From positions 396 through 64,395 of the forward strand of contig JAKSVE010000004.1 in the NCBI GenBank assembly GCA_024408295.1: a stretch of 64,000 nucleotides of DNA, given 5' to 3'. Below are positions 63,305 through 63,373 of the stretch, one piece after another; within the stretch, counting starts at the first letter, position 1, and every line of letters starts with the position of its first letter. Both the position numbers and the translations under genes were made by a program. The DNA is from Bacilli bacterium. GTDB taxonomy: Bacteria; Bacillota_I; Bacilli_A; RFN20; CAG-826. The notes under the pieces are model-generated. The model saw nothing but the letters and a program-made list of their open reading frames with translations. It had not been told where the DNA came from and made no database searches.

Positions 63305-63373
63305 GGGCGCGTCAAATCGTTAAGAGGGTGCGTAAACATAACGAAGGGTGCGTGATTTCGCCTAGGGGTGCAT
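63305..63373 (+). repeat. Iteron-like array B: four GGGTGCGT-type motifs at 20-21-bp spacing
   Basis: GGGCGCGT 63305, GGGTGCGT 63326, GGGTGCGT 63346 and GGGTGCAT 63366. Confidence 0.7.

Follow-up and report, generated by a model that had tools for sequence, protein, structure and literature searches.

Why does a Bacilli genome carry four copies of an 8-nt box, GGGTGCGT and its variants, at steps of 21, 20 and 20 nt? The boxes lie 3' of a gene whose stop codon is at position 63246 of the window, by which we mean the whole 64,000-nt stretch analysed (C34:396-64395 of genome G000, a 1.02-Mb assembly that is 64% complete). An earlier sequence-only reading had placed them at 63305, 63326, 63346 and 63366 (array B), and our rescan of the window agrees. 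Array B is the second copy in the window of an element-end arm, of which array A is the first: conserved, phased boxes, in lineage-specific variants, that run directly into the element's half of a precise junction at the end of a tRNA gene. Our best explanation, which we regard as probable with clear reservations, is that array B is a helically phased, predicted protein-binding repeat arm on the element side of a serine-recombinase crossover junction.

Serine integrases are prized in genome engineering and are thought to need only short, simple sites. If the explanation holds, conserved phased accessory arrays with lineage-specific variants would add a layer of control (directionality, target choice, mobilisation in trans). 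They would also explain how recombinase-less cassettes carrying defence, transporter and surface-protein genes pile up behind tRNA genes in small-genome gut bacteria. The element family, consisting of gene cassettes and prophages at tRNA ends, occurs widely among Bacillota and Mollicutes-like bacteria of the gut and the environment. The module formed by boxes and half-site is in addition a simple annotation signature, from which the exact base of an element boundary can be read even in genomes that show no integrase.

Phasing of the boxes in the window

The box itself is not enriched: the window contains 19 matches to GGGTGCGT with at most one mismatch, against 18.5 expected. In the whole assembly (2 x 1.02 Mb, both strands) there are 206 such matches, and chains with steps of 20-22 nt are formed only by arrays A and B, with a chance expectation of about 0.06 for two-unit chains. 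The signal in the window is the phasing of the boxes and not their frequency. Three boxes of array A (59105, 59126 and 59147) come from the motif scan and the two at 59062 and 59083 were added by eye (Table 1).

A 148-nt direct repeat starts at the last box of both arrays, and the units upstream of that box have diverged, as the sequence-only reading had noted. The repeat contains the AATTGTATTAAAATAGGTAATCATTGCCA stretch, a hairpin with a 12-bp stem followed by T5, and the last 28 nt of a TetR-family gene. An orthologue of array B in genome G018 (C39:2026-2136) has six units and is 88% identical over 90 nt; the spacers differ at 6 of 24 positions and the two central cores at 0 of 16, which are small numbers.

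A conserved module in other genomes

A scan for three phased boxes, with one genome per species, returned at least 119 stretches. Many are unrelated tandem repeats in high-GC genomes, and about 45 loci (25-38% G+C) among the matches listed share one module architecture. It comprises three to six boxes at 20-22 nt with few recurring spacer types, the last box being fused to AATTGTATyAAAATAGGT(C/A)A and the module ending in ..CAACACA or ..AATCAAAGCCA. Beyond this end the sequence differs between copies, and a terminator hairpin usually comes next. The hosts of the listed modules are Acholeplasmataceae, Mariniplasma, Izemoplasmatales, unnamed Bacilli and Bacillota, Clostridia, Christensenella, Oscillospiraceae and Ruminococcus; five IMG/VR viral contigs also bear the module. 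Loci from related genomes are not independent. Within the genus of the window genome, GGGTGCGT arrays occur in 2 of 77 species and the half-site with some type of box in 11 of 77.

Over 61 modules the unit spacings are 20 nt (87), 21 nt (42), 22 nt (5) and 19 nt (2), so that 134 of 136 fall at 20-22 nt. For a non-circular test, only the 18-mer that follows the last box served as anchor (89 cases). A step of 20-22 nt back from the last box leads to an exact GGGTGCGT in 44 of these 89, whereas off-phase control offsets give 0 of 178. This bears out the earlier proposal of selection on the motif and its phasing beyond simple duplication. The comparison of core and spacers over more copies points the same way (1.3-2.7 bits in the core, 0.1-0.5 bits in the spacers), although this table is partly circular, the units having been chosen by their core.

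Other arrays use other box words, namely GGGTGCTA, GGGTGTAA, GGGTGCCA, TGTACGCA, GGGTATGCA and GTGGTTGGA. Within one array the variant is uniform across units and the spacers differ, which points to a sequence-specific DNA-binding partner and to phasing on one face of the helix. Units of the GTGGTTGGA type repeat every 32-33 nt, equal to three helical turns.

The genes flanking the modules are unrelated between loci, yet co-oriented with the module. Clustering of the open reading frames (ORFs) over 35 module loci gave no conserved neighbour protein and no Rep or Par. A literature search for the GGGTGCGT 8-mer returned unrelated primer and sequence matches only.

The module ends at a tRNA-end junction

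Modules cluster in islands directly 3' of tRNA genes: tRNA-Ala in the window, tRNA-Glu in G018, tRNA-Leu in G105, L039, G101 and L121, and tRNA-Arg/Ser in G105. The sequence that follows a module (..CAACACA/TATTGAAAGCATAGGTTTGATAC.., with the slash at the junction) equals the sequence that follows the tRNA CCA in the same genomes (..CCGCACCA/TATTGAAATCATAGGTTTGATAC..). An empty site is present in genus-mate G016, where tRNA-Glu(CTC) is directly followed by AACAAAATATAACGAGGCAAGTCCTCG.. and a restriction-enzyme-like gene. In G018, the DNA that follows the G016 tRNA-Glu instead follows the array B orthologue (..GGGTGCGTAATCGTATCAAAATAGGTAATCACTGCCA/AACAAAATATAACGAGG..), and tRNA-Glu is followed by AAACTAAAAAGTAGACATTTTGTGC.., the hairpin that is found after arrays A and B in the window. 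Comparison of the empty site with the two G018 junctions thus shows that the G018 island was inserted precisely behind the CCA of the tRNA gene and that the array occupies the inner right end of this island.

Written as attachment sites, attB is the empty site of G016 (..CACCA/AACAAAATATAACGAGG), attL is ..CACCA/AAACTAAAAAGTAGACA in G018, with the AAAC-hairpin, and attR is array..TGCCA/AACAAAATATAACGAGG in G018, the core common to the three being CCAAA. The attP deduced from them, array..TGCCA/AAAC-hairpin, is identical letter for letter to positions 59179-59195 and 63398-63414 of the window. We therefore read junctions A and B as joints of elements stacked head to tail, the end of one element meeting the start of the next. 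The order in the window would be tRNA-Ala, element 1 (50.5-59.18 kb), element 2 (59.18-63.40 kb) and a third element, which starts with the hairpin and the TetR gene and in which the contig ends, 600 nt beyond array B. The hairpin directly after tRNA-Ala(CGC) is a third, diverged copy of the hairpin of arrays A and B, and we propose this site as the left junction (tRNA/element start) of an island stacked over 50.5-63.5 kb.

The composite module of the sequence-only reading has to be redrawn accordingly. Boxes and adjoining sequence do form one module, and the hairpin is real (63415-63444, then T5), but hairpin and further repeat lie across the recombination junction and do not belong to the same unit as the array. 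The supposed AT-rich linker shows the highest conservation within the module and extends up to the junction; homology between G000 and G018 stops immediately after this half-site, AATTGTATTAAAATAGGTAATCATTGCCA. The further repeat of about 65 nt is present, but it includes the last 28 nt of the minus-strand TetR gene.

Stacking is most pronounced in G105, where six to seven modules lie in one orientation within 13 kb behind tRNA-Leu, one per one to two genes; no recombinase was found among them.

Two further observations concern the junctions. Degenerate tRNA-Glu 3' ends (GAGTTCGTCTGGTATTGAGCGTGGTTCACCA) with the same native terminator bound additional small cassettes that have no box arrays (L012 3690-3744 in G018 C39; L179 1425-1500 and 2395-2470 in G016 C18), so that the tRNA-Glu hotspot has cassette boundaries of two kinds. 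In some modules an inverted copy of the half-site, AGTTGAATAACCTATTTTGATACAA, is located about 100 nt 5' of the array and is preceded by the T-arm-like GGTTCGATACC (G105 C2 about 68770-68800 and 70520-70560; G105 C1 about 645020-645060). Two such opposed sites, about 240 bp apart, could permit inversion or may mark a nested junction.

Linkage to paired serine recombinases

The module has a defined polarity with respect to an operon of paired serine recombinases. Two large serine recombinases (about 437 and 527 aa) are encoded in tandem in this operon, and both contain Resolvase, Recombinase and Zn_ribbon_recom domains. Small HTH_38 and SHOCT_2 genes precede the pair, which has a phrog_95 'integrase' match and matches the TP901-1 integrase and resolvase catalytic domains in the PDB. 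In 10-11 independent loci the module shares its strand with such a pair 0.1-11 kb further upstream; in none does the pair lie downstream. Two genus-mates of the window genome are among the examples: 150 nt separate a recombinase-B remnant from the TGTACGCA-type module downstream of it in G027, and three GTGGTTGGA units and TTGTATTAAAA..GCCA come within 100 nt after the pair in G029.

Tyrosine recombinases are not linked in this way. None of the PF00589 matches in G105, G101 and G102 is near a module cluster, and tblastn with a tyrosine recombinase query gave no match in 47 module loci; a lambda-type attP was rejected on these two results. A core match in a small ORF 5' of the recombinase pair in three prophages was judged coincidental or homologous coding sequence.

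A different recombinase cluster lies beside tRNA-Ser and another tRNA (L143 1282-7255 in G102 C3; L145 1116-5402 in G105 C2). Two large serine recombinases (about 550 and 566 aa, minus strand) are joined in it by a helix-turn-helix (HTH) protein and by a tyrosine recombinase of 323 aa, which is divergently encoded. The cluster recurs at no fewer than four places in G102 and G105.

A palindromic site and a second array

In 25 of 63 modules an inverted counterpart of the TTGTATCAAA arm follows after a constant interval of 31-33 nt. The resulting site is a 52-bp imperfect palindrome, TTGTATCAAA-N31-33-TTTGATACAA, with its centre at the junction CA where homology to the tRNA trailer begins. Serine-integrase sites have this size and this two-fold symmetry.

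A second array is found beyond the junction, made up of two to five copies of TACACGATT that are 20-21 nt apart and 175-265 nt from the last box. It is present in 7 of 49 modules and at several tRNA junctions, and in 0 of 49 equivalent upstream control regions; none was seen in the window. Often the TACACGATT array immediately precedes the gene with which the next cassette opens, in many cases one for an XRE-type HTH protein.

Proposed mechanism

In our explanation, prophages, islands and recombinase-less small cassettes all insert exactly after the CCA of a tRNA gene and stack there head to tail. The end of each element consists of three to six boxes, two helical turns apart, followed by the conserved half-site ending in CCA or ACA; past the junction comes either the trailer and terminator of the tRNA itself or the start of the next element. 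Autonomous members carry the tandem recombinase genes just 5' of the array, with the small HTH_38 and SHOCT genes before them. Being on one face of the DNA, the boxes are predicted to bind several copies of one sequence-specific protein, which may be either of the recombinases or the small HTH_38 protein. The bound boxes might then form a bent nucleoprotein arm that aids or controls synapsis at a crossover within CCAAA.

A wider proposal, which we put forward as speculation that leans towards doubt, is that a family of paired large serine recombinases in Bacillota, Mollicutes-like bacteria and their phages uses phased arm arrays next to its crossover site, one motif type towards the recombinase genes and TACACGATT across the junction. 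Theirs would be the first intasome-like serine-integrase site, and it would allow recombinase-less cassettes of one to two genes to pile up and be reshuffled behind tRNA genes, much as in integrons.

Several observations weigh against a serine-recombinase arm. To our knowledge, the known large serine recombinases need only sites of about 40-50 bp and no accessory DNA, and an arm array would be unprecedented for them; here, contrary to this minimal-site expectation, the element-side half-site is always flanked by phased boxes. The link between recombinase and module is positional, with up to 11 kb of cargo between them, and most cassettes have no recombinase. Neither G000 nor G018 (85% complete) gives a Resolvase-domain match. 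Some recombinase pairs are adjoined by a tyrosine recombinase, so other recombinases may be responsible. In 38 of 63 modules the right arm of the palindrome is missing or poorly matched; A and B are among them, with agreement at only 6 of 10 positions (counted by eye). Finally, promoter-like hexamers overlap the module on both strands, which makes a regulatory role possible.

Alternative explanations

This last point leads to an operator array, in which the boxes would bind a repressor or activator of an element-end promoter and serve outward or antisense transcription, independent of recombination. On the plus strand, the -35 hexamer would lie in the last spacer and the -10 would be yAAAAT; on the minus strand, TTGGCA-17-TACAAT or an extended -10, TGATACAAT, would direct transcription back through the array towards the recombinase genes. 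Candidate promoters of both kinds are present. On the minus strand, TTGGCA-17-TACAAT runs from 63403 to 63375 with 10 of 12 matches and TTGGCA-17-AACAAT from 59184 to 59156; both are sigma-70-like, consist of conserved half-site sequence and point back through the arrays, antisense to the upstream genes. On the plus strand, TTGATA-N17-TAAAAT encloses the last box in its spacer in many other modules. The orientation of the module moreover tracks gene and replication orientation, and the position of the TACACGATT array before the first gene of the next cassette would suit an operator. However, a plus-strand transcript would meet a terminator 20-30 nt downstream, and array B has nothing to drive on that strand, the next gene being convergent. 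The -35 hexamers vary (TCGCCT and TCCGTG in G000), no regulator gene is consistently linked, and conservation reaches far past the promoter hexamers to stop exactly at the recombination junction. We consider an operator array unlikely. A more specific candidate of this kind, LytTR-type sites (9 bp + 12 bp), was raised by the 21-nt period and rejected: there is no linked regulator of this type, and any plausible promoter would contain the last box instead of following it. A reading at the RNA level, with the array as 3' untranslated region of the upstream operon or as a small RNA that ends at the hairpin and whose GGGUGCGU words bind or sequester an RNA-binding factor, fares worse still, and we give it hardly any credence. 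The array does lie between the stop codon at 63246 and the plus-strand terminator at 63415-63449 and is probably transcribed, the G-U pairs of the hairpin indicate action as plus-strand RNA, and a TTGACA-type promoter is found upstream of some modules. Yet the periods of 20-22 and 32-33 nt are multiples of the DNA helix, there is no conserved hairpin per unit, and the last box is contiguous with the two-fold-symmetric 52-bp palindromic DNA site. The terminator itself belongs across the junction and is swapped for unrelated ones in G018, L027 and L044. Searches of window positions 48-64 kb and four related loci gave no Rfam match to such an element, only tRNA and T-box. A tRNA-like or small-RNA gene was rejected likewise, the hairpin being an exchangeable terminator.

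The sequence-only reading had called the boxes iterons, which suggests an origin of replication or a partition centromere of an excised circle, with the boxes bound by an initiator or centromere-binding protein. Phased direct repeats of 20-22 bp beside an A+T-rich stretch do resemble plasmid iterons and parC-type centromeres, and excised cassettes would be circles. We nevertheless find this very improbable and have dropped the term in its plasmid-origin sense: the 35 loci have neither Rep nor Par nor any other conserved gene in linkage, the last box is fixed 29 nt from the recombination junction, and the A+T-rich stretch is a conserved, sequence-specific site and not merely easily melted DNA. 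Arrays are also found in cassettes of one or two genes and at prophage ends beside integrase genes. There is a substantial chance, short of an even one, that arrays A and B have no local function at all and are inert relics of past integrations, kept through their recent arrival with the cassettes. Six of the nine G000 boxes are substituted, compared with 94-100% conservation per core position elsewhere (among units preselected for at most one core mismatch), and GGGTGCGT arrays are confined to the two genomes of the genus mentioned above. On the other hand, the substitutions between array B and its G018 orthologue fall in the spacers and spare the central cores, in the small numbers given, and a recombinase acting in trans could lie in the missing part of the 64%-complete assembly. 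This alternative concerns the local copies only and is compatible with a serine-recombinase arm as the explanation for the family. Because no such recombinase was found in G000 or G018 and the boxes are mutated, the local copies are probably non-autonomous or decaying.

Other types of element could be set aside. Tn7- or Mu-type ends, with contiguous transposase sites and a terminal ...ACA, do not fit: the copies in a region all point in the same direction with no inverted partner within 8-36 kb, the junction shares a 5-bp core and long trailers and not a target duplication, and no DDE transposase is linked. An integron attC was rejected as there is no linked IntI-like gene, the repeats of the array are direct, and the hairpin acts as a common terminator, replaced by others from copy to copy. 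A coding heptad repeat (21 nt = 7 codons) is incompatible with the 20-nt spacings, which break the frame.

Comparison with known systems

Among serine integrases such as those of A118/LI, TP901-1, Bxb1 and phiC31, the present system shares the adjoining gene with Resolvase, Recombinase and zinc-ribbon domains, precise insertion, and attB and attP sites with few bases in common (CCAAA). The 25 of 63 modules with a palindrome resemble them also in its imperfect symmetry about a central dinucleotide, over about 52 bp. It differs in its tandem recombinases with HTH_38 and SHOCT genes, in the extension of the half-site by three to six phased repeats, in the frequent TACACGATT array across the junction, and in its target, the very end of tRNA genes.

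Staphylococcal cassette chromosome (SCC) elements encode two large serine recombinases, about 440 and 530 aa long, and insert at the 3' end of a conserved gene. They stack head to tail, including recombinase-less cassettes, and are bounded by short direct repeats. By arrangement and size alone, our 437 + 527 aa pair, with recombinase-less cassettes stacked at the 3' end of one gene, is likened to the ccrAB cassette chromosomes of staphylococci and enterococci, with SCCmec at rlmH (PMC13739063, PMC6222049). Unlike in SCC, the target here is the tRNA CCA end and not rlmH, and the elements occur in Mollicutes-like Bacilli, in Clostridia and in the phages of these bacteria; SCC elements also lack anything equivalent to the phased repeat arms.

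The nearest, and the sole, precedent that we found for phased direct repeats serving a serine recombinase is IS1535 TnpA of the IS607 family. This protein binds cooperatively to four helically phased 9-bp direct repeats located 20-60 bp from the element end, and its filament captures the other end and assembles the synaptic complex (PMC6188088). IS607 TnpA is nonetheless small, has an N-terminal MerR-like domain, uses a motif at each helical turn and not at every second one, and shows little target specificity, in contrast to the site-specific elements described here, which encode large serine recombinases.

Tycheposons are tRNA-linked tandem islands in which new arrivals push older ones inward, leaving degenerate remnants and cargo-only units; their flanks are partial tRNA copies, and their recombinases are mostly tyrosine recombinases with a minority of large serine recombinases (bioRxiv 10.1101/2020.12.28.424599). 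The elements studied here are likewise stacked beside tRNA genes, but their flank is a phased 8-mer array with a CCA half-site, and crossover takes place after the tRNA and not inside it.

The arm-type sites of the lambda family and the filaments formed by Xis and other recombination directionality factors are direct-repeat protein sites beside the core that shape a bent intasome and confer directionality. In contrast to lambda arms, no tyrosine integrase with an arm-binding domain is linked here, and the period is two helical turns against about one. The iterons of pSC101, R6K and lactococcal theta plasmids likewise consist of three to six phased direct repeats of about 20-22 bp by A+T-rich DNA, but here there is no Rep gene and the array is fixed at a recombination junction, at the ends of prophages and cassettes; a plasmid origin or centromere was rejected for the same reasons.

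Other features of the window

The coordinates of the features in the window and of the main loci elsewhere are collected in Table 1.

Table 1. Arrays, junctions and neighbouring features in the window, followed by loci in other genomes
Feature	Position	Strand	Details
Array B, four phased boxes	63305-63373	+	63305 GGGCGCGT, 63326 GGGTGCGT, 63346 GGGTGCGT, 63366 GGGTGCAT; steps 21/20/20 nt
Array A, five phased boxes	59062-59154	+	59062, 59083, 59105, 59126, 59147; four carry 1-2 substitutions
148-nt direct repeat, right copy	63366-63513	+	95% identical to left copy 59147-59294
Element-side half-site of array B	63374-63402	+	AATTGTATTAAAATAGGTAATCATTGCCA, ends in CCA; shared by about 60 modules in conserved form
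Junction core CCAAA, inferred crossover region	63400-63404	+	Context TGCCA/AAACTAAAAAG = attP inferred from G016/G018
Intrinsic terminator hairpin	63415-63449	+	12-bp stem, 6-nt loop, T5; far side of junction; same hairpin after G018 tRNA-Glu
TetR-family gene (TetR_C_8)	63487-63999	-	Open at window end; last 28 nt within 148-nt repeat
Array A half-site, junction and hairpin	59155-59225	+	Half-site 59155-59183, junction CCAAA 59181-59185, terminator hairpin 59196-59225
tRNA-Ala(CGC), then directly hairpin variant	50440-50557	+	tRNA 50440-50515; hairpin variant 50528-50557
Loci with recombinase pair			Viral contigs L146, L149, L152; prophage ends G101, G102, G105 contig 2; L021, L095, L105
Loci with recombinase gene fragments			L110, L140
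TACACGATT arrays	L141 740-830 (G101); G105 C1 around 1352300; L144 3130-3190; L126 about 1345-1440		G105 C1 copy after tRNA-Leu

Folding of the hairpin after array B gives -14.3 kcal/mol (z -4.5) for plus-strand RNA and -8.3 kcal/mol (z -1.6) for the minus strand; it folds well only as plus-strand RNA because two pairs are G-U only on that strand. The copy of the TetR gene end at 59268-59294 is truncated. Pfam matches on the window genes are to ABC/FtsX, a C39-like peptidase, a BamE-like lipoprotein and TetR.

The promoter of tRNA-Ala (TTGTAA-17-TATAAT) lies at about 50400-50428, and just 5' of it the 12-mer CCATCTACACTA is present twice, 32 nt apart, at 50319-50365. The start of the island (50692-51928) encodes a 213-aa protein without a Pfam match and an HTH_3 protein. 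The N-terminus of the 213-aa protein presumably resembles an AbiEi-type winged helix, and an AbiEi-like pair similar to that of the window follows a GGGTGCCA-type module in G102 (L142 2317-3904). Elsewhere in the window, direct repeats at 13848-14169 and 15551-15872, which are 70% identical and 1703 nt apart, are probably paralogous neighbouring genes.

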